50,752 nucleotides of DNA from NCBI GenBank assembly GCA_913044215.1, contig CAJWOT010000001.1, positions 1 to 50,752 on the forward strand, written 5' to 3'. This stretch comes from an uncultured Rhodospirillaceae bacterium (GTDB lineage: Bacteria; Pseudomonadota; Alphaproteobacteria; UBA8366; GCA-2717185). Positions 19,129 through 42,307 of this stretch are shown here, in pieces. The first letter of the stretch is position 1. The number at the start of each line of letters is the position of its first letter. The position numbers and the translations under genes are program-made. Below the pieces are notes generated by a model, which saw nothing but the letters and a program-made list of their open reading frames with translations, ran no database searches and was not told the DNA's origin.

Positions 19129-20149
19129 CTAGGCGGCGCGGATCGATTCCAGGAAGTTGTCGACTTGCTGCCGCAGGGCCTTCCCTTGTTGGGAGAGCGT
19201 GTCCGCGGCATCCAGAACTTGGCTGGCAGCCTGTCCGGTTTCACCGGCAGCCTCGTTCACCTGTGCGATGTTGCCCGTGATTTCATTCGTTCCCGCCGTT
19301 GCCTGTTGAACGATCGATGCAATCTCCCGCGTTGCCGAGCCTTGTTCGTCGACTGCGTTGGAGATTTCCGTGGATGTCTCGCTGATTCGGCCAATGACGT
19401 CGGATATCCGGCCTATCACCGATATGGCATCATCGGTTTCGCCTTGAATTTGCGAAATTTGGGAACTTATTTCTTCGGTCGCTTTTGCCGTCTGCGTTGC
19501 GAGGGATTTGACCTCCTTGGCGACCACGGCAAACCCACGGCCTGCATCGCCGGCACGGGCGGAATCGATCGTTGCGTTAAGCTCCAGAAGGTTGGTCTGC
19601 GCGGCGATATCGGTGATCAGATCGATGACCTCACCGATTTTGTTGACCGTTTCGGCGAGTTTCTTGATTTTGTTATTGGTCGCGCTGGCTTCCGCAACCG
19701 CGACTTCGGCAATTTTCGACGATTTACCGACATGTTTTCCGACCGTGCCGACGGATGACGAAAGCTGTTCGGTCGCGGACGCAACCGTTTGCATGTTCGT
19801 TGATGTTTCGTCAGTCGTGGCCGCGACGGCGGCGGACCGCTGGTTCGTTTGATTGGCGGCGTCCGACATAGACGTTGCGAGCTCATTCAGGTGTCCGGTC
19901 GAACCGGTCAAAGACTCGACGACCGTCAGGACATTCTTCTCGAACGAGTCGGCCATCGCGAGGACTTCGCGCTTGCGCTACGCGGCTGCCGCCTCGTCCT
20001 GTTTCTGTTTTTCGTCGCGCGCTCTTTTTTGTTCCTGGCGCAGGTCTTCCGCTTGGCTCAGGTTGTCCTTGAAGAAGATGATCGCCTTGGTCATCGCGCC
20101 GATCTCGTCCCGCCGGCGGGTCGGTTTGATTTCGATCTCCATATCGCCG
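19129..20149 (-). pseudogene. Methyl-accepting chemotaxis protein remnant: second HAMP helix plus signalling domain, no sensor or TM region, one in-frame TAG
   Basis: ORF 19978..20346 ends '...GDMEIEIKPTRRRDEIGAMTKAIIFFKDNL...DEAAAA' (HAMP). An in-frame TAG sits at 19978..19980. ORF 19129..19956 continues in the same frame with '[41 protein letters not shown]' (MCP hairpin core). Confidence 0.8.
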
Positions 20150-20836
20150 TCCGGAATGACAGGCAACACAGTTCGCCTTGTTGTTGAACAAGTCGAAGCC
20201 ATGTTTTGCGGTATCCGAAATCGCGTTTTCATCGCTGGCGACCCAGCGCTCAAACGGCGCGACGCCGCTGACAACCGTCCGCTCGAAGGTGGCAATCGCT
20301 TTGGCGATGTTTTCCACCGTAACCCCTTCGCCCGGGAAGCTGACATTGAACAGCGTGCCGTACTCCGGGATCGACTTCAGTTCAGAGACGATGCTTTCCA
20401 TGTTCTGGTTCATTTCGATCGGCGCCGACATCGGGCCGAGCTCTTGCTCTTCTAGCGTTTCGAACCGTCCGTCCCACATGAGCTGTTCCGACCAGGCCAG
20501 ATTCAGAATCGTCGGCGTGCGGCGGCCCAAACGCGTCATCGTGAGGCCGATTCATTTCGGCAAACCGTCACCCCAAGAGAAGCTTGGGTTGTGGCAGGTT
20601 GCACAAGAAATGTAGTTGGCGCCGGAAAGGCGGTGGTCGAAGAAGAGCTTCCGGCCTAGTTCCGCTTTCTCTGCGGAATAGGGGTTCTCTTCGGGGAATG
20701 GAATAGCCGTCGGCCGGATATATTCCTTTTTCCATTCTTCTCGTGACTTCGCCTCCGCTAGCGCCGTCGTCGCGGTCGCCAGAATGGAGACTCCGGTAAT
20801 CGCAACGAAAGCCGTTGCTGCGAATTTTCCGAGCAT
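20150..20836 (-). pseudogene. Di-haem cytochrome c peroxidase/MauG-family remnant: in-frame TGA, 3' third deleted
   Basis: Signal peptide plus first haem site 'CATCHNPSFSWGDGLPK', then TGA at 20552..20554. The same frame continues 'IGLTMTRLGRRTPTILNLAWSEQLMWDGR...FERTVVSG...KANCVACHSG' (second CxxCH). Homology stops there, at the junction with the MCP frame. Confidence 0.8.
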
Positions 20837-20924
20837 TGTGTTTCCCTATCAGCCAAAATCACAGCGCGCAGAGAAACAACGCAGACACTTAAGCGACCGT
20901 TAAAATCGGCCCCGATTGCTCAAA

Positions 20925-20938
20925 TTTGTACGTACAAA
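20925..20938. promoter_or_regulatory. Perfect 14-bp palindrome TTTGTACGTACAAA upstream of the peroxidase remnant
   Basis: Read directly. It extends to a 20-bp dyad with one mismatch and lies ~90 nt upstream of the start at 20836. Confidence 0.3.
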
Positions 20939-21054
20939 ATTACTAACACGGAAGTTTAACGATCCGCGTTCGCATCATAAGGGCCGAATTCCGCGGGATA
21001 TGGCGGTGCCAAAGCGATTTGGCTCACTCGTAACAATTTGGTGAGCGGCGGGGC

Positions 21055-22212
21055 CTATATACTGAGGTCTAACAGATTGTAGTCCTTCATACTGGCCTTT
21101 GCGGCGCTGTCCCAGACCGGCCATTCTCCGGATTCCACGAAGGGCTGATAGGGAAAGGGAACTTCCTCCGGAAACCGCTGGCGCCGTGCGTCGATTGCGT
21201 AACCGATAACGCGAGAACGATCGCGAATTCGGGCATCGTCGTAGACACCGGGCGCATTGTGAATGCCACCACCAGAGACGCCGAGCACCGATCTACGGCG
21301 ATGGCACCCGAAATTAAGGGTCACGCGCCAGTCCGAACTGGTGTTCGCAAAAGACCCGTGCAGGCACTGCCGGTTGGTTATCGCGAGGTCACCTGGGCCG
21401 CATATGAAGGGTACGGCGTCCGGTAGCCGTTCGCTTCCCGCTTCCGCGACCCTTTGTTTGATATCGATCTTGCCGAGTTTGTGCGATCCGGGAACGACCC
21501 ATAGCCCGTTCGCAGGCGTGCAGCCATAAAGCTGCGCCATGAAATTGAACCCGTGGCTGCACTCATCCCAGTCCGGGCTGTCCCAATGGGTAACGCCATC
21601 CTGATGCCAGGCTACCGAAGCCCCGCGGCCGGGTTCCTTGATGAAAATCGCGTCGGAGAAGGGGGTGAAGTCGGGGCCATTGACCGCCGCGGCGATTGCC
21701 AGCAGATTCGGGTGTCCGGAGACGCGCAAGCAGGCTTCGGAGAACTGCAATGCGCCTAAGATCAAATAGACGATGTCCTTCGGCGCATCGGCCGCCGGTG
21801 TCGGCTCAATCATCTTTACCGGATGACGGCCATTTGCGAGATCTGTCCCGCCAAACGGGTCGGCCAACGGCTTTGACCAGAACAGGGTGGGCGCTTCACA
21901 GTCCGCGCCTAATGCGGGCCGGCCTTTCGTATCGACCAGAGATCCCTTTTCGGCAGGGAGACGGTCGAGAATATCGTGCAGGTCAGCTTCGATGTCTTGC
22001 AGCTCGTCAGAGTCAATGACGCCTTCGAATATGTAGAAGCCACACCGCCAATAGGCTTCGAGGATTTCTGGATGAATCTGACCTTCATAGGTGTATCGAA
22101 CGGGGCCGCGGTTGCCGAGGGCGAAAGCCCGTTCCTCACCGTCCCGCAAATAGGCCTGCATGGCAGCCTCTTCGGTGCCGTAATCCGTTCCTGTCGCAGC
22201 AATCGCGCTCAT
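21055..22212 (-). CDS. Phytanoyl-CoA dioxygenase (PhyH) family protein
   Basis: 'GASVAWHQDGVTHW' (HxD) and 'ITNRQCLHGSFANTS'; 385 aa. Confidence 0.8.
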   Translation of the reverse strand: MSAIAATGTDYGTEEAAMQAYLRDGEERAFALGNRGPVRYTYEGQIHPEILEAYWRCGFYIFEGVIDSDELQDIEADLHDILDRLPAEKGSLVDTKGRPALGADCEAPTLFWSKPLADPFGGTDLANGRHPVKMIEPTPAADAPKDIVYLILGALQFSEACLRVSGHPNLLAIAAAVNGPDFTPFSDAIFIKEPGRGASVAWHQDGVTHWDSPDWDECSHGFNFMAQLYGCTPANGLWVVPGSHKLGKIDIKQRVAEAGSERLPDAVPFICGPGDLAITNRQCLHGSFANTSSDWRVTLNFGCHRRRSVLGVSGGGIHNAPGVYDDARIRDRSRVIGYAIDARRQRFPEEVPFPYQPFVESGEWPVWDSAAKASMKDYNLLDLSI

Positions 22213-22258
22213 CGGCTGTCTCCTCGATCACGATGCTAGCGCAGCAGGTTTCGCCTGC

Positions 22259-23197
22259 CTAGCGCGCACGGCTTTTCGGCCAACATTCACGTAAAGCGGT
22301 CAGAAACGCCGAGGCCGCGGGGGCGATGGCCCTATCGCGACGTGTGATGATGCCCAGTCGCTGTACGGCGCCGGAGGCACGAAGGGGGCGCGTTTCGGTA
22401 TCGGCAGGGTAGGGGCCGGCAAAGTAGGTTTCCGGAACGATTGCGACCCCTAACCCTTGCGCGACCAGACGAAACGCCGTTGTGAACTGTCCGACGGTAA
22501 AATGCGAGTCGAGGGTGACGCCGGCCGCCGCGCCGGCGGCATCCAATGCCCGGCGGGCAGCAGCCTCCGTCGGCATGGATATCAGGCGTTCGCCCGCCAA
22601 GTCGTTCAACGTCAGTGTTCTTTGGGATAGATAGGGGTGGCCAGCCGGCAGAACCACGCGGAATCCGTTTTCGCCAAGCGATTCCGCTTCGAGCGGGCCG
22701 CCAATGTCCGTCGTGTCGCCCAGCCCGAAATCTGCGGAGCCGCTGCGCACTTCCTCCAGCACGTTCGTTTGGACGCTCTCGCGCAGGTCGATGGCGATTC
22801 TGGGATAACGCTCCGCGAAACGGGCAAGCGCGGTCGGCAGTACACCATGGGCGATGGTCATGAGGCTCGCGATGACAACGCGTCCCCGCTCGACATCTGC
22901 CAGTTCACGCAAATTACGGAGACCGAGGCCGAGATCGCTCAGCAATCGCTCGGCGAGGGGCATGAATTCGCTTCCCGCCACGGTCAAGGATACCCGCCGC
23001 GTGGTCCGATTAAATATTTCTGTACCAAGAATATCTTCGGCGCGGCGGACAGTCCGGGTCAACGTCGGTTGTGTAACGCCAAGGTCTGCAGCCGCGGCAG
23101 CGAAATTGCGATAGCGGGCGACCGCCAACAGGGCGCGCAGGTGTCTCGTGCTCAAATCGACATCGGGACTGACATTGTCCAATGATACCGGATCCAT
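22259..23197 (-). CDS. LysR-family transcriptional regulator
   Basis: N-terminal wHTH 'LRALLAVARYRNFAAAAADLGVTQPTLTRTVRRAEDILG' plus a LysR substrate-binding domain. It is divergent from the selenoprotein operon. Confidence 0.9.
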   Translation of the reverse strand: MDPVSLDNVSPDVDLSTRHLRALLAVARYRNFAAAAADLGVTQPTLTRTVRRAEDILGTEIFNRTTRRVSLTVAGSEFMPLAERLLSDLGLGLRNLRELADVERGRVVIASLMTIAHGVLPTALARFAERYPRIAIDLRESVQTNVLEEVRSGSADFGLGDTTDIGGPLEAESLGENGFRVVLPAGHPYLSQRTLTLNDLAGERLISMPTEAAARRALDAAGAAAGVTLDSHFTVGQFTTAFRLVAQGLGVAIVPETYFAGPYPADTETRPLRASGAVQRLGIITRRDRAIAPAASAFLTALRECWPKSRAR

Positions 23198-23372
23198 GCT
23201 CGGATTTTCCGGTTATTACATTTATGGTATTAAATAATCGTATTCGAAAATAATTGCATCAATTTAAATTGCGTTGGATATTCCGATGGTCGCACGCGAT
23301 GCGAAGTGGAAATTTCCTTTGCCGGAAGTTCGGCAGTAACATCTGGAACCTGCACTTTTGGAGGCTGGGACG

Positions 23373-24428
23373 ATGACGCTCATTTCGAAACGTTACGAGG
23401 TGGAGGACGTCCTCGCCGCGCAGGAATTCTACCACAGTCGCCAGTGGACGGACGGGCTTCCCGTGGTGCCGCCGACGCCGGAAGCAGTGCAGGCGTGCCT
23501 GGACTGGGTGATGATGCCGGCCGACCATCTGATCGGGATTGAGCCGGTCCGTGAGCGCGCCATTACTGCGGAGAAACTTGCCGTAAACGCCATCATGGCC
23601 GGTTGCTTGCCAATGCATTTTCCGGTTGTTGTGGCGGCGGTTACGGCCATGTTGGAAGAGCCGTTTTTGGTGCATGGGGCGACAGCCAGTACGGGCGGCT
23701 GTGCCGTTATGGTCGTCATAAATGGACCAATCCGACACGAACTTGGCTTGGACGGCACATTCAACGCGCTGGGATCCAGCGATCGCGGTACAACCGTGAT
23801 CGGTCGCGCGATCCGGCTTATCCTAGGCAATCTGCTCGATGTCCGGCCGGGTCAGATTGACCGATCGACTCTCGGTCACCCCGGCAAGCTCAGCTACTGC
23901 ATCGCCGAAGATGAGGAGAACGCCCCCTGGCCATCGCTCGCCGAGGACCGGGGCATTCCAAAGGAGGCGTCCGCTGTCACCGTTATGGCTGCCCTTGCCC
24001 CCCGGCAATTCATGAATGAGTGGACGACCGAGCCGAAGGAAATCCTCGATACCTATTGTGCAGAGATAAAGGCGAACTTGCGCCATTACTCGATCTACCC
24101 CGGAAACTACGCGATCGTCGTGCCACCGCAGTTGCGGACGCATTTCCAGAATGCGGGCTGGTCGCGCCGGGATATCCAGGAATACGTCTTCGAAAATGCG
24201 CGCATTTATCGCCGAGAATGGGCTGACGTCGGTAAAGCAAACGTCGTCGGCAAGCGCGGCGATCAAGAGTATCCGGCGTTACCGGATCCCGAACATTTGC
24301 TGATCATCGCGGCCGGTGGACCGGCGGGCGGTTTCGGCGCGGTTATAGCCCCTTGGCTGGGGCACAAGAGCAGGGCGGTGACGATTGCGATCGGCGCTTG
24401 TCTCGATTGCGAGCCGCCGGCGAATTGA
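23373..24428 (+). CDS. Conserved protein of unknown function; first gene of the selenoprotein operon, C-terminal CxxC
   Basis: 351 aa with a GGAGG RBS 8 nt before the ATG at 23373. GC-rich codon use matches the neighbours. It ends '...AIGACLDCEPPAN'. I cannot assign a family from memory. Confidence 0.75.
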   Translation: MTLISKRYEVEDVLAAQEFYHSRQWTDGLPVVPPTPEAVQACLDWVMMPADHLIGIEPVRERAITAEKLAVNAIMAGCLPMHFPVVVAAVTAMLEEPFLVHGATASTGGCAVMVVINGPIRHELGLDGTFNALGSSDRGTTVIGRAIRLILGNLLDVRPGQIDRSTLGHPGKLSYCIAEDEENAPWPSLAEDRGIPKEASAVTVMAALAPRQFMNEWTTEPKEILDTYCAEIKANLRHYSIYPGNYAIVVPPQLRTHFQNAGWSRRDIQEYVFENARIYRREWADVGKANVVGKRGDQEYPALPDPEHLLIIAAGGPAGGFGAVIAPWLGHKSRAVTIAIGACLDCEPPAN

Positions 24429-24458
24429 GTTTGTAGATAGAAAGGAGAGGTCCCTAGG

Positions 24459-24983
24459 ATGGAAATACTCGATCCTACACATGAGGCGGATGCTGGCGGT
24501 TTTGCCTTGGCGGCACGCCTCTCAGCACTGCAGGGTGCCACGGTCGGCATCATCTCGAATGGGAAGAAGAATACGATTCCGTTCTTCGACGCGTTCGAGA
24601 GCGAGTTGAAAGAAACATACGGGGTTGCCGAGGTTGTCCGCCGGACAAAATCGAACTACAGCGCCCCTGCCGATGCCCATCTGGTGGAAGAAGCGCAAGG
24701 CTGGGACGCCGTCGTCGCCGGTATAGGCGATTGAGGCAGTTGCTCGTCGTGCAGTTTGCATGACGCAGTGATCGGCGAGAAGATCGGCAAACCGGCGGTC
24801 AGTATCATGACCACCAAATTCGTGAGTGCCGCCGAACTCATGGCCCGCGTTTTGGGCGCGGACGGTTATCCGTTCGTGGTCATCGACCATCCCATCAGCA
24901 GTGCCTCTGGAGAGACGCTGGATGATTGGGCTCGGACGGCGGCTGGCCAGAGCGTTGATCTGTTGATTGGCGCAAACCGCTAG
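24459..24983 (+). CDS. UGSC-type selenoprotein (Sec at codon 92, UGA 24732..24734)
   Basis: ORFs 24459..24734 and 24756..24983 are in the same frame and separated only by TGA. Translation across it gives '...WDAVVAGIGD-U-GSCSSCSLHDAVIGEKIGKPAVSIM...'. A strong AAAGGAGAGG RBS precedes 24459. The downstream ORF has only a TTG and no RBS. A SECIS-like hairpin follows. Confidence 0.8.
24745..24765 (+). promoter_or_regulatory. Candidate bacterial SECIS minihelix
   Basis: CGUCGUGCA-GUU-UGCAUGACG forms a 9-bp stem (one G-U pair) with an apical loop containing G and U. It starts 11 nt after the UGA. The apical part UGCA-G.U-UGCA resembles the E. coli fdhF minihelix as I recall it. Confidence 0.6.
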
Positions 24984-24986
24984 CCG

Positions 24987-26156
24987 ATGCCGGAATCCAC
25001 CACTGTCGGTCCGCTTGCCGGCTATAAGATCGTCGAGATCGCTGGCATCGGACCGTCGCCCCTATGCTGTTCCCTGCTGGCCGATATGGGGGCGGATATC
25101 GTTCGTATCGACCGAAAGGGGCTGACCGGTCTCGGCTTCGAATACGCCGGTGTGAAAGCGGATATCCGTCGCCGTGGACGCCCGTCGATTGCGGTTGATT
25201 TGAAGCATCCGAAGGGTGTCGAAACGGTTCTGCGTTTGATCGAGAACGCCGACGCGTTGGTTGATCCGATGCGCCCCGGCGTGATGGAGCGGCTCGGACT
25301 CGGGCCTGACGAATGCTTGGCGCGCAATCCGAGGCTGATCTACGGACGCATGACCGGATGGGGACAGGATGGACCGCTTGCCCCAGTCGCAGGCCATGAC
25401 ATCAACTACATTTCACTATCCGGGGTATTGCACGCCATAGGCACGCGCGAACGGCCGGTGCCGCCGCTCAACGTGATCGGCGATATGGGCGGTGGCGCCA
25501 TGTTCCTGGTCATGGGGCTGCTCGCCGGCATGCTGGAGGCGCGAAATTCCGGCAAGGGGCAGGTCGTCGATGTCGCGATGACGGAAGGATCGGCTTATCT
25601 GGCGATGGCCTGCTTTGGGCTCGCCTCTTCCGGTCATTGGACCGACACCAGGGAAAGTAATCCGCTGGATGGCGGCGCACCGTTCTGGCGTTGCTATGAA
25701 ACCAAAGACGGGAAGCACATATCGATAGGGGCCGTCGAGGAGAAGTTCTACGCCATACTATTGGAGACACTTGAACTTGATCCTACAGACCTGCCCGGGC
25801 AACTCGATCCGGAGGGGTGGCCGGAGATCATCGAGACCCTGGACGCGAAATTCAAAGAAAAGACCCGGGACGAATGGTGCGACATCATGGAAGGCACGGA
25901 TATCTGCTTTGCACCGGTCTTGAGCTTCAGCGAGGCGCCACACCATCCGCATAACCAGGCGCGAGGCAGCTTTGTCGAGGTCGAGGGAATCGTTCAGCCG
26001 GGACCTGCACCGCGTTTCAGCCGGACGCCGTCCAGGGTAAAAGGCGGACCACCGGATTTCGGTGCGCAGACGGAAACAGCCTTGGCGGCTTGGGGATTTT
26101 CCGAATCCGAGATCGATATGTTGAAATCGGAAAAGGCGATCGGGCGCGAACAATAG
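24987..26156 (+). CDS. CaiB/BaiF family III CoA-transferase (alpha-methylacyl-CoA racemase-like)
   Basis: 'LAGYKIVEIAGIGPSPLCCSLLADMGADIVRIDR' and later 'NVIGDMGGG'. The ATG is 3 nt after the selenoprotein stop. Confidence 0.9.
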   Translation: MPESTTVGPLAGYKIVEIAGIGPSPLCCSLLADMGADIVRIDRKGLTGLGFEYAGVKADIRRRGRPSIAVDLKHPKGVETVLRLIENADALVDPMRPGVMERLGLGPDECLARNPRLIYGRMTGWGQDGPLAPVAGHDINYISLSGVLHAIGTRERPVPPLNVIGDMGGGAMFLVMGLLAGMLEARNSGKGQVVDVAMTEGSAYLAMACFGLASSGHWTDTRESNPLDGGAPFWRCYETKDGKHISIGAVEEKFYAILLETLELDPTDLPGQLDPEGWPEIIETLDAKFKEKTRDEWCDIMEGTDICFAPVLSFSEAPHHPHNQARGSFVEVEGIVQPGPAPRFSRTPSRVKGGPPDFGAQTETALAAWGFSESEIDMLKSEKAIGREQ

Positions 26157-26360
26157 CGGTGCCGCGCCACGCACCTTAATTTCGTTCATATCTCCCCCAT
26201 TTGGGGATATTCCGGCCGGCTTTTCGCGGTAAATTATCCTTGGTGCTGCGACGTGCGGCGGGACAGGTCGCTTACGCGATCTTAACCACGCCGTTCGAGA
26301 CTGGTCGGGGGTTAAGACCGGTGTCGCAGTTGAGGCGGCGCGAATTGTCGGGGCGGCGGT

Positions 26361-27785
26361 ATGGCGCATTCATTTTCATTCTTATCCGACCGAGAAGCGC
26401 GCCTTTTGGCGACGTCCGGGGATACAAGCTTTACCGGTGTGGATGAGGAGCTTGTAGACGCGAAGCCGCTGTTCAGCCTCTTTGCCGTCGATGATCGGGC
26501 GACGGTCATGGCGGCGCTGACGTAGGCTAACGCACAAGCGGAAATCGAACTGCCGGAGCTGCGGATCCTCAGCGGGGGCGATCAAGAAGCCGCATTCGAC
26601 ATAACGATCCAACCGGCAGGACCCGACAAATTCTGGATTCTGTTTGTCTTGTCGCCCAACCAGCCGGGTCCGGCGAGGCCGGCGCAAAAGGAAGACTTCC
26701 TCGACGCGGTTGCCGAGCGTCTGGGTGTGGCCGACGCGCCAGCCATGCAGATGAGCATGGTCGATTTCGAAGCGTTGCGCGATACCGAGCTGAGGGAAAA
26801 ACTTGGTGATGATGCGATGCAGGATTTCCGGTCGAGCATCGTAGGTGCTTTGACGGAAGTCGCGGTCGATGGGCAGGTCTGCAGGCTGGATGCCACGAGC
26901 CACGGTGTATTGAGCCCGATCGATCAGGATCAGGACCAAATGATAGCGACGGTTGCAGAGGCGACCGAGGAATTCGGGGTTAGCGAATCCGATCTCGGGA
27001 CTGCAGTTGAAAGCGTGGAACTCGATGTCGATGCCGATGCAGAGCCTGAAGATCTCCGCGGACTCTTATCTCATACAGCACATAAATTTTATCAAACTGT
27101 TCGCAAAGGGACGCCCTTTGGCACGGCCAAGATCAGCGAAGTTTCGGAGGAGATCGCCCAGGCGATACAGCTCATCGAGACCGCGCTGGAGCGTGGCGAT
27201 ATTTCTGTTACGTCGCGGGAAGTCCGGCGCATCACAGATGGGGGTATTTCCCTGTACCTCGCCCATGGCGCTCTGGTCGTCGGTAATGAGATCGTTCCCG
27301 CTGACCAGCTTCTGGCCATGGAGGATCACCCGGAGTTGGCCGGTCGTCATGATCGCTACATGGTCGCGATTGCGTTGGAGACCTTCGGTCAAGCCGATCC
27401 GAGTACCCCCGTAATTGTCGATTTTGCACTCCCGACCCTGGAATCCGGTTAAGCGAGCCGGATTGCCGAAGAAATGGCGGGACTGGGCTATCGGATCGGT
27501 TTCCGGCCGCATGGGCTCGACATGGCGTCCAGCCGCTCGAAAGGCGCGCGGCAGGTTTATCAGCTGTTAAAGGAAGGGGTGCCGGTCTGGCTGATGAATT
27601 TCGCCACTGCGATTTCCAAGACCCGCCGGCTGCGCGGCGCCTATGTCAAAGTATCGGCGACCTTTTTGCGCGATCTGAGCTTCCAGCCTGAGCGCAACAA
27701 GCTGATTTCCCGTTTTCTGAAGATTTGGCACGACGTGGAAGTGAGCCTTATCGTTTCTGCACTCGATCTTCGCCACGAAGCCTGA
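26361..27785 (+). pseudogene. Degenerate PAS-GGDEF-EAL signalling gene with two in-frame stops (TAG 26523..26525, TAA 27450..27452)
   Basis: A single frame runs from the ATG at 26361. It covers a PAS-like block ('LFSLFAVDDRATVMAALT*ANAQAEIELPELRIL...KFWILF') and a GGDEF-like block lacking GGDEF ('MSMVDFEALRD...DGQVCRLDATSHGVL'). EAL-like blocks follow ('ALERGDISV...', '*ASRIAEEMAGLGYRIGF...YVKVSATFLRDL'). The catalytic signatures are degenerate. Confidence 0.6.
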
Positions 27786-27791
27786 ATTGAC

Positions 27792-28595
27792 TTACCGTAT
27801 CGCGAATGTCATGGAGGCCCAAAGACTTTCCCAATCCGCCTTCCTATCGGGTGCGGGATCGAACATGTGGACCGTGTTGAGCAGATAGGCGCCGCGCGAC
27901 GGCAACGATATCGCGGCGCGGCCCTCAGCGTCTGTCACGGTCTGGGTCGGATTCTTCGGGTCCGCTGCGCTGAAGGTCGTGATCGTCATGCCGGCACTCG
28001 GTTTTCCGTTCAATAACAGGCGCACAGGCAAGTTTGCACCGGGTGACAGCATATAGGGATTTTGTTCCGCGACCAGTTCGAAGGGGAGGCCCAGGGCTCG
28101 ATCGGTCCCGGTCGCATCGCCGACGCCAAGCAGCAGCTTGGTATTTCGGGCGTAGCTCTCGACTATTCCCGTTGCCGGTTTTCCCAACGTGCCGTGCTGC
28201 CGCGCCAACGCTTCATAGCCGATTTTTTGGGCATACTTGTCAAAATCGGCGCGTGTTTCGAAGGTATGCGGTTCGTGTGCGCCAAAATAGCCAAAGACCT
28301 TGAGGCCGGGTTTGTCGAACTTGATCCGTACAGCCGGCAGGTCGCCTTCGAACCCACGGACCTTTCGTTCCCGGCCTTGGTCGAGAACGATATAGCGGGG
28401 GTGCCATTCCGTGACAAAGGGTAGTTCGTCGCCTTTGAAATGCTGACCGTAAGTGTGGCGGATTGCGATCCTAGTATCCGTCGACGGCGTGTAGCTGCTG
28501 GGTGCAAGCCAGAACTCATGCGCGTGCGCGTTGCTGGCGCAGATTGCGGCAAAAAGCAGCAAGACCGGGATCGTAGCTTTACGGAGACGGAGCAT
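27792..28595 (-). CDS. DUF4198-family periplasmic protein (nickel/cobalt-uptake associated)
   Basis: Signal peptide 'MLRLRKATIPVLLLFAAICASNAHAHEFW' and the typical 'HEFWL' start of the mature domain. Confidence 0.8.
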   Translation of the reverse strand: MLRLRKATIPVLLLFAAICASNAHAHEFWLAPSSYTPSTDTRIAIRHTYGQHFKGDELPFVTEWHPRYIVLDQGRERKVRGFEGDLPAVRIKFDKPGLKVFGYFGAHEPHTFETRADFDKYAQKIGYEALARQHGTLGKPATGIVESYARNTKLLLGVGDATGTDRALGLPFELVAEQNPYMLSPGANLPVRLLLNGKPSAGMTITTFSAADPKNPTQTVTDAEGRAAISLPSRGAYLLNTVHMFDPAPDRKADWESLWASMTFAIR

Positions 28596-35474: not shown

Positions 35475-35572
35475 ATTCTCGGGCTTGTCACGAGAATCCA
35501 GGCTGACGCCGCGTGGCCTTTGAAATATGAACGTCTCGCGGTCGGACCCTGGGTACTTGGGACAAGCCCGAG
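35475..35572. repeat. Intergenic palindromic (REP-like) element between convergent genes
   Basis: Local hairpin ATTCTCG-N9-CGAGAAT (35475..35497). A 12-bp long-range inverted repeat pairs CTCGGGCTTGTC (35478..35489) with GACAAGCCCGAG (35561..35572). It resembles the 'gggcttgacccgagg' repeat class common in alphaproteobacterial spacers (from memory). Confidence 0.4.
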
Positions 35573-35599
35573 TAGGACGGTAGATTTGAAAAAAGCGGC

Positions 35600-36085
35600 T
35601 TAATCGCCTTCCGGGCGCTCGAAGATCATACAGCTCGTCGTAGCGTGGGCGAGCAGTTTGCCATTCTCGTCGGTGATCTTGCCTTCCGCATAGCCGGCAC
35701 GGCGGCCGCTGCGCAGCACCGTGCCGACCGCTGTGATGGTCCCGCTGTCGGGAACCACCGGCCGCATGAAGGTGATCTTGAATTCGAGGGTCGTGGAGCC
35801 GAGTCCTTGATCGAGTGTCGTGGCCACGGCGAGACCCATGCAGGCGTCGAGCAAGGTGGCGGAATAGCCGCCATGCACCGTGCCCTGAGGGTTGAGATAC
35901 GCGCCGGTCGGTGCCGCGGTGATCACGACCCGGCCGACCTCTGCCTCGACGACATCGTAATCGAGCACTTCCGCCATCGTATTGAGGGGTTGCGAGCCGT
36001 CTGCGAGCCCTTTCACGAACGCGAGTCCGCTCATCTTGTTCTGTTCAGAACTCGGCACCGTGCCGTAGCGTTTGGCCGCCATCAA
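35600..36085 (-). CDS. PaaI-family thioesterase (hotdog fold)
   Basis: 'NPQGTVHGGYSATLLDACMGLAV'. The start overlaps the stop of the upstream crotonase gene (ATGA). Confidence 0.85.
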   Translation of the reverse strand: MMAAKRYGTVPSSEQNKMSGLAFVKGLADGSQPLNTMAEVLDYDVVEAEVGRVVITAAPTGAYLNPQGTVHGGYSATLLDACMGLAVATTLDQGLGSTTLEFKITFMRPVVPDSGTITAVGTVLRSGRRAGYAEGKITDENGKLLAHATTSCMIFERPEGD

Positions 36086-36927
36086 CTGTTCCCTCCACCC
36101 AGACCGGCGAATTGTGGTGGCCTACCATTCTGATAGGCGTCGACGCCTTCCTTGTAGTCGTCGCTCAACATGTGCTCGCCGATCAAGTCTTTCGATGCTT
36201 CGACCGATTTACCGACATCATGTTGCATCAGCTCCGCATAGAGTTGACGTTTAGAGGTCAGCATTGCCGCAGGAGAGTTCTGTTGCGCCATATGGTTGGC
36301 GGTCTCCGCGACCCGCTTGCGAAATTCCTTAAAGGGGTAAACCGCGTTTAGGAATCCCATTTCCTTGGCTTCCTCGGCCAGGAAGATGCGCCCGGTCAGC
36401 ATGATGTCGGCGGCATGTGTAACGCCGACCAGCCGCGGCAGAACCCAGGAGAGCCCGTATTCCGATGGCAGGCCGAGGCGGGGCCCTGCGGTTGTGAATT
36501 TTGATCCGATCGCGCCGTACCGCAGGTCGCAGAAGGCAGCCAAGGTTAGCGCGATTCCCGCGCAGGCACCGTTCATCGCGGCGATCACGGGTTTGCGCAG
36601 CCCCCAATGCCAGACCATGTCATGGTCGTATTCCCGCCGAACCCCGAATCCGGGCTTTTCCAGATCGTTGTCACGCACTGATTGCGCGTAATCCTCGCCA
36701 GTGTCGGAATAGTGATCGAGCGCTTTCATATCCGCGCCGACGCAGAATTGACGCCCGGTCCCGGTTACCACGATGACCCGGACGTCCGGATTTGCGTCGA
36801 GCTGCGCCATGCGCCAGCGATATTCGACATTCATCTGCATCGTCCATGAGTTGCCACGCCCGGGACGATCCAGATATACCGTGCCAACCCCATTCTCGAT
36901 CGTGCATTGCGTGACCTTGCATTCCAT
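36082..36927 (-). CDS. Enoyl-CoA hydratase-related (crotonase) protein
   Basis: 'VGTVYLDRPGRGNSW...VTGTGRQFCVGADM...AAMNGACAGIALTLAAFCDLRYG'. Confidence 0.85.
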   Translation of the reverse strand: MECKVTQCTIENGVGTVYLDRPGRGNSWTMQMNVEYRWRMAQLDANPDVRVIVVTGTGRQFCVGADMKALDHYSDTGEDYAQSVRDNDLEKPGFGVRREYDHDMVWHWGLRKPVIAAMNGACAGIALTLAAFCDLRYGAIGSKFTTAGPRLGLPSEYGLSWVLPRLVGVTHAADIMLTGRIFLAEEAKEMGFLNAVYPFKEFRKRVAETANHMAQQNSPAAMLTSKRQLYAELMQHDVGKSVEASKDLIGEHMLSDDYKEGVDAYQNGRPPQFAGLGGGNS

Positions 36928-37004
36928 CGTGAAAACCCTCTTTCGCTTGATTGCGAGCCGACCGTAACGAAATCGGCTCGCCGGGCAAACAAAAGGAAAT
37001 ACAT

Positions 37005-37637
37005 ATGTTCTATGAGCCGAAAGACGGCCACGGCCTGTCGAAGAATCCGTTCAACAGCCTTGTCGTGCCGCGGCCAATCGGCTGGATCAGTAGCACCGAC
37101 AAGAATGGGGTGGTCAATCTGGCGCCCTACAGCTTTTTCAACGCGACCAGCTATAACCCGCCGACGGTGATGTTTTCCGCGGGCAAGGGCCAGGTCGAAG
37201 ATGACGGGCGCAAGGATTCGCTGCGCAATATCCTCGAGACCGGCGAGTTCGTGCACAATTTCACGAATTGGGACACGCGCGAGGCGATGAATCAGAGCTC
37301 CGCGACCACATCGATGGATGTCGACGAGATGGCGATGGTTGGCCTCACGCCGATTCCGTCCAAGCTGGTCAAAGCGCCACGTGTGAAGGAGACGCCGATC
37401 CATTTCGAGTGCAAGCTCATTCAGACCGTCGATCTGCCGAACGAAAATCCGAACAACAAATACACCGTGGTCTTCGGCGAGGTGATCGGTATCCATATCG
37501 ACGACGATTTCATCCTGCCGAACGGCGAAATCGACATCGCCAAGCTGCACCCGATTTCGCGCATGGGCTATCAGGATTACAGCGAAGTGACGAGCGAGAC
37601 TGTCTTCACGATGGAGAGGCCGGGCTTCCGGGAGTAG
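37005..37637 (+). CDS. Flavin reductase family protein
   Basis: 'PRPIGWISSTDKNGVVNLAPYSFFNA...PPTVMFS'. The ATG at 37005 follows AAGGAAA. Confidence 0.85.
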   Translation: MFYEPKDGHGLSKNPFNSLVVPRPIGWISSTDKNGVVNLAPYSFFNATSYNPPTVMFSAGKGQVEDDGRKDSLRNILETGEFVHNFTNWDTREAMNQSSATTSMDVDEMAMVGLTPIPSKLVKAPRVKETPIHFECKLIQTVDLPNENPNNKYTVVFGEVIGIHIDDDFILPNGEIDIAKLHPISRMGYQDYSEVTSETVFTMERPGFRE

Positions 37638-37674
37638 GGGAGGTTGCGGCGTTTGACGGTTTGATCAAGTTTTA

Positions 37675-37775
37675 CCCTCACCCTGGCCCTTTCCCTAGGA
37701 AGAGGGTCCCTTTTGGAGCGCCTGCTTAGCTTTCTCTCTCCTTGGGCAGAGGGCTGGGGTGAGGGGAGGAACGTT
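37675..37775. repeat. GC-rich REP-like palindromic intergenic element
   Basis: Arms CCCTCACCCTGGCCCT (37675..37690) and AGGGCTGGGGTGAGGG (37760..37775) are complementary at 14 of 16 positions. Smaller internal dyads are present. Spurious translation gives 'PHPGPFPRKRVP', the signature of a widespread proteobacterial spacer repeat (from memory). Confidence 0.5.
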
Positions 37776-37807
37776 ATGAGCGCAGCATCGATGGAAGGTT
37801 TCCCGCG

Positions 37808-38677
37808 ATGACGACCCCGTCCGCCGCGCGCGGCGCGCTGCTCATTCTGCTTTCCGGCTTGGGCCTCAGCTTCGGTGGGCTGATCGTCCGGCATATCAAT
37901 GTCGCGGACGACTGGCAGATCGTTTTCTACCGCTCGACCGTGGTCACCCTGATGCTGCTGTTGTTTATTGCGCTGCGCGACCGGTGCGCCGTCCTCAGGA
38001 CCTTTCGCCGTTGCGGATGGCCCGGGGTTTGCGCCGGACTGTCGATCTCGGTGGCGATGGTAACGTTCATCCTGTCGGTCAACGCGACGAGCGTTGCCAA
38101 CACCCTGTTCGTGCTGGCGGTCGCGCCGTTTCTGGCCGCAGTGCTGGGCTGGCTACTGCTGCGTGAACGGGTCAGGCGGGCGACCTGGGTGGCGATGGCC
38201 GTGGCGCTCGCTGGGGTCGCAATCATGGTCTGGCACGGTGTGAGCGGAGGCAGCCTGTACGGCAATCTGATGGCGTTGATCACCGCCTTAGGGTTCGCCG
38301 GCTTCACCGTAGCGCTGCGTTTCGGGCGCCAGACCGACATGATGCCAGCCGTCTGCCTGGCCGGCGTGTTCAGCGCTACCGCTGGTGCATTTGTCGTAAC
38401 GCTCTCCGGTGCGGGCTTCGCCATTCCGTTGGCCGATATCGGCTACAGCGCGCTCTACGGTGCGTTGATCGCGACCGGCCTTGCCGCCTTCACCGTTGGC
38501 GGCCGCGCAGTCCCCGCCGCCGTACTGGCCTTGCTGTCGTTGACCGAAACACTTTTCGGTCCGGTCTGGGTGTTGCTGTTCCTGAACGAGGTGCCGCACG
38601 CGACGACCTTGATCGGTGGTGCTGTCCTGATGTCGGCAATTGTCTGGCAAGCGATCTCGAGCATGCGCCGCGCGTGA
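37808..38677 (+). CDS. EamA/DMT-family transporter
   Basis: 289 aa with ten hydrophobic helices and duplicated EamA halves. Confidence 0.85.
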   Translation: MTTPSAARGALLILLSGLGLSFGGLIVRHINVADDWQIVFYRSTVVTLMLLLFIALRDRCAVLRTFRRCGWPGVCAGLSISVAMVTFILSVNATSVANTLFVLAVAPFLAAVLGWLLLRERVRRATWVAMAVALAGVAIMVWHGVSGGSLYGNLMALITALGFAGFTVALRFGRQTDMMPAVCLAGVFSATAGAFVVTLSGAGFAIPLADIGYSALYGALIATGLAAFTVGGRAVPAAVLALLSLTETLFGPVWVLLFLNEVPHATTLIGGAVLMSAIVWQAISSMRRA

Positions 38678-38747
38678 CCGTTCCCTCTGTACCTTTGCGT
38701 GTACAGCGCTCTAATCTGTTCGCGTATCATAAACATAAGAGGCCGCC

Positions 38748-40016
38748 ATGCTGAAACCCGAAGACAACGAACTCCTGTGCCGCGTCGGACCGGGGACGCC
38801 GATGGGAGAGCTGTTTCGGCGCTTCTGGGTGCCGGCGCTGATCCCGTCGGAGATCGCGGAGCCGGACTGCGACCCGGTCAAGCTGCGGCTGTTGGGCGAG
38901 GACCTTGTTGCGTTTCGCGACACGAACGGACGCATCGGGGTTTTGGAGGAGCGCTGCCCCCATCGCCGCGCTTCGCTCTTTTTCGGGCGAAACGAGCAAT
39001 GCGGGATCCGCTGCGTCTATCACGGCTGGAAATTTGATGTGGACGGCAATTGCACCGAAATGCCAAATGAACGGCCGGAAACCGACTTCAAACACAAGGT
39101 GCGGATCAAGAGCTACGCGGCGGCGGAGTGGGGCGGCTATATCTGGGTGTATATGGGACCGGCCGAGCTCAAGCCGCCTCTGCCGGAATTCGAATGGGCG
39201 ACGTTGCCGCCCGCGCATCGCTGGCAGCGTAAATGGCACTATTCTGCAAACTGGATGCAGGGTTTGGAGGGTGAGCTCGATACCTGTCATACGACCTTCC
39301 TGCATGGCGGAATCGATCCGGCGACGCTGTCGCCCGGACTCACTGAGTCGACTTCGAATTGGGCCAAGGACGGCATGCCGGAGCTCAATGTCCGCGATAC
39401 CGAATATGGCTACTATTACGGGTCGAAGCGGGATTTTGGTGATGGGACCTACAATTGGCGGCTGACACAGTGGATCCTGCCTTGCAATTCGATCATCCCG
39501 CACGCCAAGTTTCCGATATCCTCTCGTGCCTATGTCCCGATTGACGATGACAATACGTTCGTCTTTGGCAGCTCCTTCAACCCTGAAGCGCCGATGACGC
39601 AGGAAGACCGCGACTATCTGGAGACCGGCATGGGTGCGGCGCCGAAGTTGATCCCGGGGACCTTCACGCCAGAGGTGAACAAGACGAATGACTATCAGCG
39701 CGACCGCGCGCTGCAGCGGTCAGGCCACGCGACGGGCATCCCCGGGGTGAACAACCAGGATCGGGCGATCGTCGAGGCGATGGGGCCGATCGTCGATCGG
39801 GAGAATGAGCATCTGGGCACCTCGGATGTCGCGGTCATCGCCGCGCGCCGGAAGCTCATTCGAATGGCGAAGGACCTTGCGGACGGCAAGGAGCCGGAAT
39901 TGCCGCATAATCCCGCGGCGTTCAACGTGCGGCCGATCGATGTGACGGTCTCGCAGGATAGTCTCGACGCCGTTGTATCGTCCTGCGGCGATAAGCTGCG
40001 TTTCGCTGCTGAGTAG
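38748..40016 (+). CDS. Rieske [2Fe-2S] aromatic-ring-hydroxylating oxygenase, alpha subunit (phthalate/VanA-type, single component)
   Basis: Rieske motif 'CPHRRASLFFGRNEQCGIRCVYHGWKF' and a mononuclear-iron region 'NWMQGLEGELDTCHTTFLH'. Confidence 0.9.
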   Translation: MLKPEDNELLCRVGPGTPMGELFRRFWVPALIPSEIAEPDCDPVKLRLLGEDLVAFRDTNGRIGVLEERCPHRRASLFFGRNEQCGIRCVYHGWKFDVDGNCTEMPNERPETDFKHKVRIKSYAAAEWGGYIWVYMGPAELKPPLPEFEWATLPPAHRWQRKWHYSANWMQGLEGELDTCHTTFLHGGIDPATLSPGLTESTSNWAKDGMPELNVRDTEYGYYYGSKRDFGDGTYNWRLTQWILPCNSIIPHAKFPISSRAYVPIDDDNTFVFGSSFNPEAPMTQEDRDYLETGMGAAPKLIPGTFTPEVNKTNDYQRDRALQRSGHATGIPGVNNQDRAIVEAMGPIVDRENEHLGTSDVAVIAARRKLIRMAKDLADGKEPELPHNPAAFNVRPIDVTVSQDSLDAVVSSCGDKLRFAAE

Positions 40017-40030
40017 CTTCGCAGGAGCCC

Positions 40031-40951
40031 CTAGGTTTCCGCCGCCTGCTTTCTCTCCTGCTCGACGACATCGTCGAAGAAGCGGTTTTCCAGGATGCTC
40101 TGATTCGAATAGATCGAACCGACCACTGCTGAGGGTCGCAGGGGCAGGGGGATGCGGATCGGCGCCGGAACCACGCGGGGCGTCAGGGTCGGCTCTCCGT
40201 GGACGATCTTTTCATTGAAGCCGTCCAACCCGCCCTTCAAATCGGCGAGCGGCCAGGCGTCCGCCGCGGCGTAGGCCTGCAGCAGAAAACGTCGTGAGCG
40301 GCCTGACCGGTTGAAGGCGGAGCCGTGCAAAAGGCGGGCATGATGAATCGTCAACGTCCCTGCAGGCCCCATCAACGGGACCGCCTTGGCGATCTCGTCC
40401 TTGATGGCGTCCGGGTCAATGGCCCCGCAGAAATAGCCATGTTCATGATGATCATAGGTCGGGCCCTTATGGCTGCCCGGCACCACAAACATCGGTCCGT
40501 TCTCTTCCGTACAGTCATCCAGATAGATACCGACAGCCAGAACGTCGTCATTGGTGTGCGGGTAGAACGCCCAATCCTGATGCCATTCGACGGATTCGCC
40601 GACTTCGGCGGACTTCATGTTGATCTTGGTGTTGTGAACGCGAATGCCGGACGGCATCAGCGGCGCCAAAATTTCCATGATCAAGGGTTCGGCGACGAAA
40701 TCTGCGAAGAAATCCGAATGTTCGTGATGAGACTTGATCCGACGGATGCGCGGTTTGTCCGGCGTGTGCGAGGGATCGAGATCGAGCATGTCGGTGCCGG
40801 CGGTGACTTGGTAGGCTTCCGCGCACATCCGCTCGGTTTCTTGGATAACGGCCTGCAGGCGGTCCTGCGGCACCGCGTCTGTGATCACAAGATAGCCGTC
40901 GCGGTCGTAGCGATCCAATTCTTCCTGGGTCAGCGTGCGAGTCATCGCCAT
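40031..40951 (-). CDS. Phytanoyl-CoA dioxygenase (PhyH) family protein
   Basis: 'LTQEELDRYDRDGYLVI', 'VEWHQDWAFYP', 'FVVPGSHKG', 'IHHARLLHGS'. Confidence 0.85.
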   Translation of the reverse strand: MAMTRTLTQEELDRYDRDGYLVITDAVPQDRLQAVIQETERMCAEAYQVTAGTDMLDLDPSHTPDKPRIRRIKSHHEHSDFFADFVAEPLIMEILAPLMPSGIRVHNTKINMKSAEVGESVEWHQDWAFYPHTNDDVLAVGIYLDDCTEENGPMFVVPGSHKGPTYDHHEHGYFCGAIDPDAIKDEIAKAVPLMGPAGTLTIHHARLLHGSAFNRSGRSRRFLLQAYAAADAWPLADLKGGLDGFNEKIVHGEPTLTPRVVPAPIRIPLPLRPSAVVGSIYSNQSILENRFFDDVVEQERKQAAET

Positions 40952-41029
40952 TTCTCCTAGTATGCGTCGGTCGGAGAATAATATTGTCGTCTGCGTTAGG
41001 CAAATTGGCCAATTTGAGGTGTTTCAGCC

Positions 41030-42307
41030 ATGTCTGCCGATGAACAGAGCACAGCCGTTTCGAACCTGAATGACTGGCATTTACTGCATTACGGCCGGGA
41101 TTTTATCGAGGCGCTGATCGTTCGATCCGAAGGGGCGTACATTTACACGGAAGAGGGCCGGGCGGTATTGGATTTCTCTTCAGGGCAGATGTGCGCGACA
41201 ATCGGGCACAACCATCCCCGAATAGTAGAAGCGATGGCGTAGGCCGGCCGCACCGTGCTGCATCTCGACAGCACGATGCTGTCGCCCGATGTCGTTGAAT
41301 TGGCCGATCGGCTTTGCGGTTTGTTGCCGCCATCGCTGAGCAAGGCGCAGTTTCTTAATACCGGTGGCGAAGCGAACGAATCGGCAATCCGGTTTGCCAA
41401 GATTGCATCCGGGCGGTTCGAGGTGATCGGCATGGCCGGCTCCTGGCACGGCACCACCACCGGCGCCTCGTCGGCGACCTATGCGCATGGGCGCAAGAAT
41501 TACGGTCCAGCGATGCCCGGCCTCTTGGCGAGCCCGGCGCCGAACGCCTACCGATGTCCGATCCGCCGTTGCCGGGAGCATTGCGACATGACGTGCCTCG
41601 ACATCGGGTTCGATATGATCGGCGCGACGTCGGTCGGGTCCGAGGTGGCGCTGATTGTCGAGCCGGTCCAAAGCGCGGGCGGCATCGTGGTGCCGCCGGA
41701 AGGGTATTTCCAGCGCCTGCGCGATCATTGCGAAAGCCGCGGCATCCTGTTGATTTTCGATGAGGCGCAGACCGGATTAGGCCGTGTCGAGGCGATGTTC
41801 GCTTTCGAAGAGGTCGGCGTTGTGCCCGATATTCTGACCCTGTCGAAGACCTTGGGCGGCGGCTTGCCGCTCTCCGCTGTCGTCGCGTCGGAAGAAGTCG
41901 CGGCCCAGGGCAAGTAAGGCAGCTTCGGCCACTACACCTCGCATGCGTCCGATCCCCTCTTGGCGACCGTGGGGCTGGCGGTTGTCGATGTCATCGTCGG
42001 GGACGCGCTTGCCGACCGTGCAAAGCATCTCGGCGACCGGCTGCGGGACGGGTTGCGCGCGCTGCAGGGCCGGCACCAGGCGATCGGTGACATCCGGGGC
42101 CGCGGCTTGCTGCTGGGCGTCGAGATCGTGACCGACCGCGAGACGCGCGCGCCGGGGCATGAACTGATCGTGCAACTGACCGATCGATGCTTCGAACTGG
42201 GTTTGAATGTCAATCGGGTCGGTGGTCCGCACAGCGTATGGCGCTTGGCCCCGCCGCTCACCATCACAGAGGAGGAGATCGACGAGGCCGTGGCGATCAT
42301 GGATTAG
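41030..42307 (+). pseudogene. Class III (DgdA/omega-type) PLP aminotransferase with two in-frame stops (TAG 41240..41242, TAA 41915..41917)
   Basis: ORFs 41030..41242, 41255..41917 and 41960..42307 share one frame and join into a 423-aa protein plus two stops. It is collinear with 2,2-dialkylglycine decarboxylase as I recall it. Matching blocks are 'LDFSSGQMCATIGHNHP', 'NTGGEANESAIRFAK', 'LIFDEAQTGLGR', 'DILTLSKTLGGGLPL', 'GDIRGRGLLLGVEIV'. Confidence 0.85.

Follow-up and report, generated by a model that had tools for sequence, protein, structure and literature searches.

We are confident that four genes broken by in-frame stop codons in an uncultured marine alphaproteobacterium are ordinary unitary pseudogenes, which on the sequence comparisons described here appear to be decaying neutrally in a planktonic population. 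The window, as we call the whole stretch of DNA analyzed, comprises 50,752 nt of contig CAJWOT010000001.1 (assembly GCA_913044215.1; its genome is labelled G000). The features under discussion are as follows.

Positions 149 to 647, minus strand: SpoIIE/PP2C phosphatase relic, with SpoIIE matches in two different frames.
Positions 19129 to 20151, minus strand: remnant of a chemoreceptor (MCP) gene, whose translation matches MCPsignal (4e-31).
Positions 20151 to 20152, no strand: deletion junction; contig C468 of the sister genome aligns to either flank and has 2116 additional bases in the middle.
Positions 20152 to 20836, minus strand: remnant of a di-haem cytochrome c peroxidase gene (CCP_MauG, 3.8e-51).
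Positions 26358 to 27785, plus strand: conserved gene of ~505 aa with a weak EAL-like C-terminus, aligned without gaps to the intact orthologues of G002 and G004.
Positions 41030 to 42307, plus strand: class III aminotransferase pseudogene with three derived stops (Aminotran_3, 2e-85).

An earlier note, made from the sequence of the window, had claimed six in-frame stops in these four genes, and all six lie at the sites and in the frames that it gave: TAG 19978 and TGA 20552 on the minus strand, and TAG 26523, TAA 27450, TAG 41240 and TAA 41915 on the plus strand. Its observation that each stop has homologous sequence in the same frame before and after it also stands, since the Pfam matches to MCPsignal, CCP_MauG and Aminotran_3 listed above were obtained with read-through translations and 482 residues of the third gene align to intact orthologues without gaps. 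The relatives compared included a sister MAG, G001 (labelled Rhodospirillaceae), and two genomes that served as sources of third-gene orthologues, G002 and G004. Sense codons occupy 6/6 sites in relatives; the ancestral residues, in the order given above, are Glu, Gly, Glu, Glu, Gln and Glu.

The peroxidase and chemoreceptor remnants are joined by a deletion of ~2.1 kb. At the junction site the sister genome retains what the window lacks of the two genes, the 3' third of the one (peroxidase) and the 5' half of the other (MCP), together with a 192-aa ORF that resembles a cupredoxin by eye. The surviving part of the peroxidase begins with the signal peptide and reaches as far as the second CxxCH, and its TGA (20552-20554) replaces the Gly codon GGA of the sister genome, in which the frame of 389 codons is intact. 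In the chemoreceptor remnant the N-terminal sensor/membrane half has been deleted, and the signalling domain survives with the end of the HAMP region; the TAG of this remnant (19978-19980) corresponds to the Glu codon GAA in the sister. In the third gene, TAG 26523-26525 and TAA 27450-27452 both stand in place of Glu, encoded in relatives by GAG/GAA and GAA, respectively. This gene lacks its final ~30 codons, with a deletion breakpoint near 27746, and the downstream ybaK-like gene is gone too. The label 'PAS-GGDEF-EAL' that the gene had been given does not hold: the window copy has no Pfam match, and its intact G004 orthologue has only a sub-threshold match to EAL, at the C-terminal profile positions 137-230 (22.6 bits against a cut-off of 31.3). 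The aminotransferase gene is intact in the sister genome. In the window its TAG 41240 derives from the Gln codon CAG of outgroups (CGG in the sister) and its TAA 41915 from the Glu codon GAA/GAG, and the terminal TAG 42305 proved to be a third derived stop, likewise premature: it is CAG (Gln) in four relatives, and the sister frame extends 8 codons beyond it. The SpoIIE relic is an older pseudogene, with a frameshift between matches of 24.1 bits (profile positions 104-189) and 17.3 bits (profile positions 2-31); positions 143-438 of the window are absent from the sister genome.

All six stops, as well as the 20151|20152 junction, recur in separately assembled metagenomes, and they are therefore not assembly errors. 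The contigs concerned (L094, L095, L117, L120, L179, L180, L181 and L183, which also served for comparisons between strains) come mostly from Tara Oceans metagenome assemblies. The chemoreceptor stop is present in L181 and L183 and the peroxidase stop in L179, L180, L181 and L183, and the junction is gap-free in L181 (20x coverage) and L183. Contig L094, which is 96.65% identical to the window, has both stops of the third gene and L095 has TAG 26523; in the aminotransferase gene, TAG 41240 is found in L117 and TAA 41915 and TAG 42305 in L120. The replicating assemblies derive from other runs or samples and are 96.6-99.7% identical to the window (ERZ841987, TARA_SAMEA2622796, CENY01031455, CEUN01009889, ERR594338, ERR599111, ERR599061 and ERZ11848501, the last at 20x coverage). 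The gene remnants occur in every overlapping contig recovered from the population. The contigs were reached via look-ups of neighboring genes and a metagenome scan; look-ups of the exact products of the 267-, 220-, 275-, 306- and 367-aa ORFs gave no match. A stop outside the window, on contig C24, was likewise reproduced in an assembly from another run. For a stop on C306, the matching contig ends short of the site.

Variation between strains indicates what has happened to these genes since. In the four genes, variants fall on the three codon positions in the ratio 41:41:40 (p = 0.99 for uniformity) at 1.6% per site, accompanied by 5-6 indel events and 3 additional stops in other strains. In the flanking intact genes the ratio is 3:4:36 (p = 2e-11), variants amount to 0.27% per site and indels are absent; the variant rate in the four genes is thus six times that of their neighbors. 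The indels include single-nucleotide deletions at 19951 in the chemoreceptor remnant of L183 and at 26381 in the third gene of both L094 and L095. Across the 411 kb aligned between G000 and its sister, nonsense-bearing genes match other genes in pS (0.104 vs 0.098) but have three times their pN (0.026 vs 0.0086, p = 2e-5); for the aminotransferase gene pN is 0.032 against the genome median of 0.0086. Judged from this variation, the four genes are dead and are evolving without constraint, and a recent relaxation of selection, which was among the causes that the earlier note had suggested, is well supported by the evenly hit codon positions and by the rise in pN with pS unchanged. The stops are moreover clustered: by chance 0.4 genes would be expected to carry two or more, and four do (P = 7e-4). 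Across the G000 genome, 63 ABC-transporter ATPase domains are all free of stops, which argues that the stops are not randomly scattered.

On our preferred explanation the chemoreceptor, the periplasmic cytochrome c peroxidase, the EAL-like protein and the class III aminotransferase were dispensable, lost their function at about the time when the sister lineage split off or later, and have since then drifted neutrally under AT-biased mutation pressure. In a genome of 60% GC a single change leads to a stop most often by G>T in the abundant Glu codons GAA and GAG and by C>T in CAG, which explains why the stops arose from Glu, Gly and Gln codons. The neutral ratio of indels to substitutions in the clade is ~0.05, or about one small indel per 20 neutral substitutions, so that several stops and zero small indels are easily expected in the few kb of dead ORF of a single strain; large deletions have already taken parts of three of the four genes. 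We infer the order of these lesions, and likewise that the loss of sensing and accessory catabolic functions represents streamlining. The lean towards sensing genes that had been proposed is upheld by the broken set, which besides the chemoreceptor, the EAL-like protein and the SpoIIE relic includes a response regulator and a class III cyclase.

Plain neutral decay does not, however, fully explain the excess of nonsense lesions in G000. Over the 411 kb compared with the sister, G000 carries 14 nonsense lesions, spread over 11 genes, and 1 small frameshift, in one gene, whereas the background (changes in the sister lineage and between strains) amounts to 5 nonsense lesions and 8 frameshifts; the contrast by genes, 11:1 against 5:8, is significant (Fisher p = 0.011), as is that between the nonsense lesions of G000 and its sister (14 vs 2, p = 0.004), although the gene counts are small. 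The overall pseudogene load of G000 is modest, at ~3.4% of tested ORFs. These counts refine the statement that the window had nonsense codons and no frameshifts, a pattern which the note had called odd. In G000 the four genes are indeed without small frameshifts, but three of them have suffered large deletions, and other strains of the same population have 1-nt deletions in the same genes. Several lesion calls were rejected as false: an intergenic stop on C123, masked by Ns in the sister genome; shadow frames or 5' ORF extensions on C132, C281 and C77; an in-frame slip of a 6-nt repeat at window position 28514; intergenic calls on C26, C147 and C500; and, as far as G000 is concerned, a 29-nt deletion on C155 that belongs to the sister. 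Whole-genome scans for in-frame stops, based on codon usage and a 5th-order Markov model, yielded 557 candidates that included same-frame adjacent genes and antisense shadow frames; they were too unspecific for that reason and were dropped for the comparison with the sister genome.

One possible source of the skew, which we consider rather doubtful, is an episode or regime of mutation biased toward AT-ward, G:C>T:A-rich substitutions, caused for example by a transient mutator or, in surface water, by oxidative or UV damage, that makes gene loss nonsense-driven instead of indel-driven; it would add to neutral decay and not replace it. Between G000 and its sister (223 kb), G:C>T:A differences number 695 against 442 in reverse (1.57-fold, p = 6e-14) and G:C>A:T differences 2637 against 2326 (p = 1e-5), both counted without outgroup polarization, so that part of the asymmetry could reflect GC-ward change in the sister lineage. 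G:C>T:A also accounts for 5/6 of the window stops, 3/3 of the extra stops in other strains and 12/20 of the nonsense events at G:C pairs (21 events in total). However, given the ratio of G:C<>T:A to G:C<>A:T changes in the dead genes (0.44) and the codon target sizes, a share of 40% would be expected among stops, and the excess of the observed 60% is marginal (p = 0.058); the nonsense and frameshift comparison, in turn, involves small numbers of genes. Loss of GO-system or mismatch-repair genes, as in a mutator lineage, can be rejected, since mutY, fpg, nth, mutS and mutL are all present without internal stops (mutY 308, fpg 293, mutS 873 and mutL 478+113 bits, all above their cut-offs; nth intact). 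A family-1 ung gave no match in G000, but neither did the Caulobacter control, so that its absence carries no information. The mutational excess from GC to AT that the note had listed as a cause thus finds support in the asymmetry against the sister but not in any repair-gene defect that we found. It is somewhat less likely still that gene loss in this ocean population is mainly substitution-driven rather than indel-driven in spite of its intact mutY, fpg, nth, mutS and mutL; were this true, oxidative or UV damage would be a motor of streamlining in surface plankton.

The other alternatives concern whether the genes are broken at all, and here neutral decay is strongly preferred. In bacteria, in-frame stops have been reported to occur widely under purifying selection (Belinky et al. 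2021, PMC7918605) and the reading frames in the window look well preserved, which would fit tolerated or programmed read-through, or a split-gene function, with useful protein still being made. This is very improbable. The uniform codon-position pattern, the variant rate and the indels, set against constrained flanks, rule out functional read-through, as purifying selection on the four frames is lacking; other strains have frameshifts and additional stops in the same genes, and three of the four have lost essential parts by deletion. Read-through would furthermore have to involve all three stop codons, with no suppressor among the 25 assembled tRNAs.

Even more improbable is an artefact of sequencing, consensus or assembly, in which miscalled bases in a low-coverage MAG create spurious stops. 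Low coverage and low read quality are known to produce false internal stops more often than false frameshifts (Cooley & Wright 2024, PMC11017572), an error mode that matches the excess of stops seen here; the sister contig has only ~6x coverage, and a pair of stops outside the window (C152, positions 10180 and 10252) lies close to a contig end, at 250-320 nt, where local divergence is 10-12%. This explanation, which the earlier note had entertained, is nonetheless refuted for the six window stops by their recurrence, along with that of the deletion junction and the C24 stop, in assemblies that are 0.3-3.4% different, one of them at 20x coverage. Also against it are the concentration of stops in genes with raised pN, their absence from the 63 ATPase domains, and the large deletions that accompany them in three of the four genes. 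Least credible of all is an altered genetic code or Sec/Pyl recoding, for which the presence of in-frame stops is the sole argument: TAG, TAA and TGA all occur in frame and all terminate intact neighboring genes, and the ancestral Glu, Gly and Gln offer no single consistent residue. The note's own judgment that a code change was unlikely thus agrees with our findings, and its suggested search for suppressors came out negative: of the 25 tRNAs that ARAGORN found, none reads CUA, UUA or UCA in its anticodon, and neither tRNA-Sec nor tRNA-Pyl is among them, although the incompleteness of the assembly makes this absence weak evidence.

What looked like a possible artefact, read-through or recoding thus resolves to ordinary pseudogene decay, a clean negative whose demonstration rests on replication across public metagenome assemblies and a codon-position test. 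The findings document that genes for sensing and for accessory redox or catabolic functions are still being lost in this marine alphaproteobacterium, and they leave a modest residual oddity in the nonsense-heavy lesion spectrum of a GC-rich genome.

These loci resemble several systems described previously. Like the spurious pseudogenes of Cooley & Wright (PMC11017572), they come from a fragmented MAG in which internal stops outnumber frameshifts; unlike them, their stops are replicated across samples, assemblies and strains and are accompanied by relaxed selection and deletions. With pseudo-pseudogenes and retained stops (PMC7918605; Feng et al. 2022, PMC9122581) they share collinear ORFs and stops common to strains, but their frames vary neutrally (41:41:40), with no signal of retained coding. 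The closest counterparts that we compared are the unitary pseudogenes of the Mycobacterium tuberculosis complex, Salmonella Typhi and the Burkholderia leaf-nodule symbionts, which are likewise broken relative to intact orthologues in relatives. There too, later lesions pile up once constraint is gone, deletions take flanking DNA, and sensing and accessory metabolic genes are hit. In the M. tuberculosis complex, which also has high GC, frameshifts dominate (66.5%, as against 16.1% for internal stops; PMC9676053), whereas here nonsense prevails by 11 genes to 1 in comparison with the sister; and the population described here is not host-restricted but free-living ocean plankton, with a modest load.

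The genes interrupted by stops, which encode a chemoreceptor (MCP), a peroxidase, a protein of a conserved family (26358-27785) and a class III aminotransferase, are ordinary, real pseudogenes of a marine planktonic alphaproteobacterium. Translation and codon inspection place six in-frame stops where the earlier note had reported them, each breaking a single continuous frame; its claim that the genes lack indels was overstated. Pfam searches of the read-through translations return MCPsignal (4e-31), CCP_MauG (3.8e-51) and Aminotran_3 (2e-85). The window makes up all of contig C1 in assembly G000, which is MAG-like (4.75 Mb in 525 contigs, 93% complete, 5% contaminated, ~60% GC), and its closest genome, G001, has a DNA identity of 95-98%. 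The stops and the codons of relatives are:

19978, minus strand: in-frame TAG in the MCP gene; GAA in relatives
20552, minus strand: in-frame TGA in the peroxidase gene; GGA in relatives
26523, plus strand: in-frame TAG in the 26358-27785 gene; GAG or GAA in relatives
27450, plus strand: in-frame TAA in the 26358-27785 gene; GAA in relatives
41240, plus strand: TAG in the aminotransferase gene; three outgroups have CAG and G001 has CGG
41915, plus strand: in-frame TAA in the aminotransferase gene; GAA or GAG in relatives

The earlier note took CAG, CAA, TGG or CGA in orthologues as signs of a transition to a stop. CAG, in the outgroups at TAG 41240, is such a codon. The other five sites have Glu or Gly codons in relatives, and there the stop arose by G>T at the first codon position.

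Among the causes listed earlier, relaxed selection holds. When replicate contigs were compared with the window and variants sorted by codon position, the four broken genes varied at 1.6% of sites in a 41:41:40 distribution (p = 0.99 for uniformity) with 5-6 indel events, whereas six flanking intact genes varied at 0.27% of sites, distributed 3:4:36 (p = 2e-11), with no indels. The four broken genes evolve neutrally. Their indels are single-base deletions at 26381 (two strains), at 27557, and at 20494, 20186 and 19951 (one strain), and other strains carry three further stops (GAA>TAA at 20383, GAG>TAG at 20139 and TCG>TAG at 19947).

We fetched 591 kb of G001, of which 411 kb aligned to G000 (median identity 96.7%), and curated lesion calls by hand. 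Of 354 ORFs tested in G000, 11 contain nonsense lesions (14 in total), and there is one small frameshift (an 8-nt deletion, contig C50); over the same 411 kb G001 carries two nonsense lesions and three frameshifts:

+10 insertion, seemingly in an FMN-dependent alpha-hydroxy-acid dehydrogenase by eye (C314; locus L077, G001 contig C284)
-29 deletion in the UvrD C-terminal tail (C13, locus L036)
-1 deletion in G001's own MCP copy (C468)

Among the genes broken in G000 are a response regulator, class III cyclase, flavin reductase and amidohydrolase, together with a gene that resembles a glycerophosphodiesterase by eye. Genes with nonsense lesions match other genes in pS between G000 and G001 but have a threefold pN (p = 2e-5). 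No stop occurs in any of 63 ABC-transporter ATPase domains, and at least two stops fall in each of four genes, where 0.4 such genes are expected (P = 7e-4). These three observations fit dispensable genes that drift once inactivated. Broken genes are about three times as frequent in the window (4 of ~45) as in the remainder of the sample (9 of ~320; p = 0.06).

The "no indels" claim stands for the aminotransferase alone, the one truly nonsense-only gene, and fails for large deletions at 20151|20152 and at the end of the 26358-27785 gene. G001 contig C468 matches the window either side of 20151|20152, with 2116 additional bases in between. This extra DNA contains the final (3') third of the peroxidase gene, whose 389-codon frame is intact in G001, a 192-aa ORF with a cupredoxin-like look (by eye only), and the chemoreceptor gene's 5' half. 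What G000 retains of the peroxidase and MCP genes is therefore two remnants joined by deletion. The 1-nt deletions at 19951, 20186 and 20494 in these remnants belong to an ERR599061 contig 98.6% identical to the window, so small indels do build up in these pseudogenes within the population. The 1-nt deletion in the G001 MCP copy lies just upstream of the G000 TAG site.

The gene at 26358-27785 belongs to a conserved family of ~505 aa, intact in six relatives with gap-free alignment; its final ~30 codons are gone in G000. The label PAS-GGDEF-EAL, applied earlier, is not established, since the window copy has no Pfam match and an intact orthologue matches the EAL C-terminus at 22.6 bits, below the cut-off of 31.3. 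Only 7 bases separate it from the next gene in G000, where G001 has a ybaK-like gene (Cys-tRNA(Pro) deacylase family by eye) and G004, a further relative, has both this and an AMP-binding acyl-CoA synthetase gene. The alignment (window 27746-27792 against G001:C331:1-709 and G004:C47) suggests that the two genes were lost from G000 stepwise, through deletion. In two other contigs, L094 and L095, codon 8 has lost one base (26381), a deletion that G000 and G001 lack; both carry TAG 26523, and L094 also has TAA 27450, a site beyond the end of L095. Nearby (28514-28519), a CGCACG repeat directly after the signal peptide of a 271-aa gene has slipped in frame by 6 nt, shortening an Ala-His repeat from AHAHAH to AHAH relative to G001. 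The CaiB/BaiF-type CoA-transferase at 24987-26156 is 100% identical in protein sequence in three other ocean assemblies and the adjoining pseudogene differs at 2-3% of sites, a sharp contrast between constrained and unconstrained DNA.

The aminotransferase is intact in G001, where its frame is 8 codons longer; its terminal TAG (42305) in G000 is also derived: G001, G004 and two relatives from metagenomes have CAG there. Further downstream, the intergenic stretch 43275-43443 measures 169 nt in G000 and 25 nt in G001, and beyond 43444 identity to G001 falls to 88%. The relic at 149-647 has SpoIIE matches in two different frames and is thus frameshifted. This SpoIIE/PP2C relic is older than the G000/G001 split and is eroding differently in each lineage; 296 bases inside it (143-438) are missing in G001.

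A GC-to-AT mutational bias is weakly supported. The clade's neutral indel:substitution ratio is ~0.05 (58 indel events per 1054 substitutions in intergenic G000/G001 alignments; 5-6 per 122 in dead genes between strains), and ~2.5% of neutral substitutions in dead frames create stops (3/122), so new stops and small indels should be roughly equal in number. Several stops and zero small indels in ~4.7 kb of one strain are unremarkable, the more so given the large deletions. In the comparison with G001, primary lesions of G000 stand at 11 nonsense genes to 1 frameshift, compared with 5:8 in the pooled background (Fisher p = 0.011). Between G000 and G001, G:C>T:A differences outnumber the reverse 695 to 442 (p = 6e-14) and G:C>A:T differences 2637 to 2326, asymmetries that are unpolarised by an outgroup. 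Of 21 nonsense events, 20 arose at G:C pairs, and 12 of these are G:C>T:A; the dead-gene rate ratio of 0.44 and codon targets (57 Glu codons per 1000) predict 40%, which leaves a marginal excess (p = 0.058). With mutY, fpg, nth, mutS and mutL intact, a substitution-biased regime in the G000 lineage is possible but unproven.

Tolerated read-through, or function as split genes, would leave selection on the interrupted frames, as in the comparison case of Belinky et al. (PMC7918605); the even codon-position spread and the strain indels and stops give no sign of it, and we reject read-through. We likewise reject a sequencing or consensus artefact. Through exact-protein look-ups and a single metagenome scan, we obtained contigs of different runs and samples, the majority from Tara Oceans, and every window stop recurs in them:

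TAG 26523 and TAA 27450: ERZ841987 contig, just 96.65% identical to the window
TAG 26523: TARA_SAMEA2622796 scaffold, 99.2% identical
TAG 41240: CENY01031455
TAA 41915 and TAG 42305: CEUN01009889
TGA 20552: four assemblies
TAG 19978 and junction 20151|20152: ERZ11848501 (20x coverage) and an ERR599061 contig
Flavin reductase stop outside the window (C24): two Tara assemblies

With 0.3-3.4% of sites differing from the window, these contigs represent different strains, not the same molecules re-assembled, which excludes the assembly route to spurious internal stops described by Cooley & Wright (PMC11017572) for replicated sites. Only one stop pair, elsewhere in G000, might yet reflect an artefact near a contig end or a recombined tract: C152:10180 (TAC>TAA) and 10252 (TGG>TGA) are separated by 72 nt, the contig ends 250-320 nt away, and local divergence from G001 there is 10-12%. 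A code change, already thought unlikely, is excluded by the three stop types, the differing ancestral residues, the same codons ending intact genes and the lack of any suppressor, Sec or Pyl tRNA among the 25 tRNAs assembled in G000. The genome also encodes a two-piece (permuted) tmRNA, typical of Alphaproteobacteria, with the tag ANDNFAGEARLAA.

The spectrum of lesions differs from that of another GC-rich lineage, the M. tuberculosis complex, in which pseudogenes are dominated by frameshifts (66.5%, versus 16.1% internal stops; PMC9676053), whereas those of G000 are dominated by nonsense lesions.
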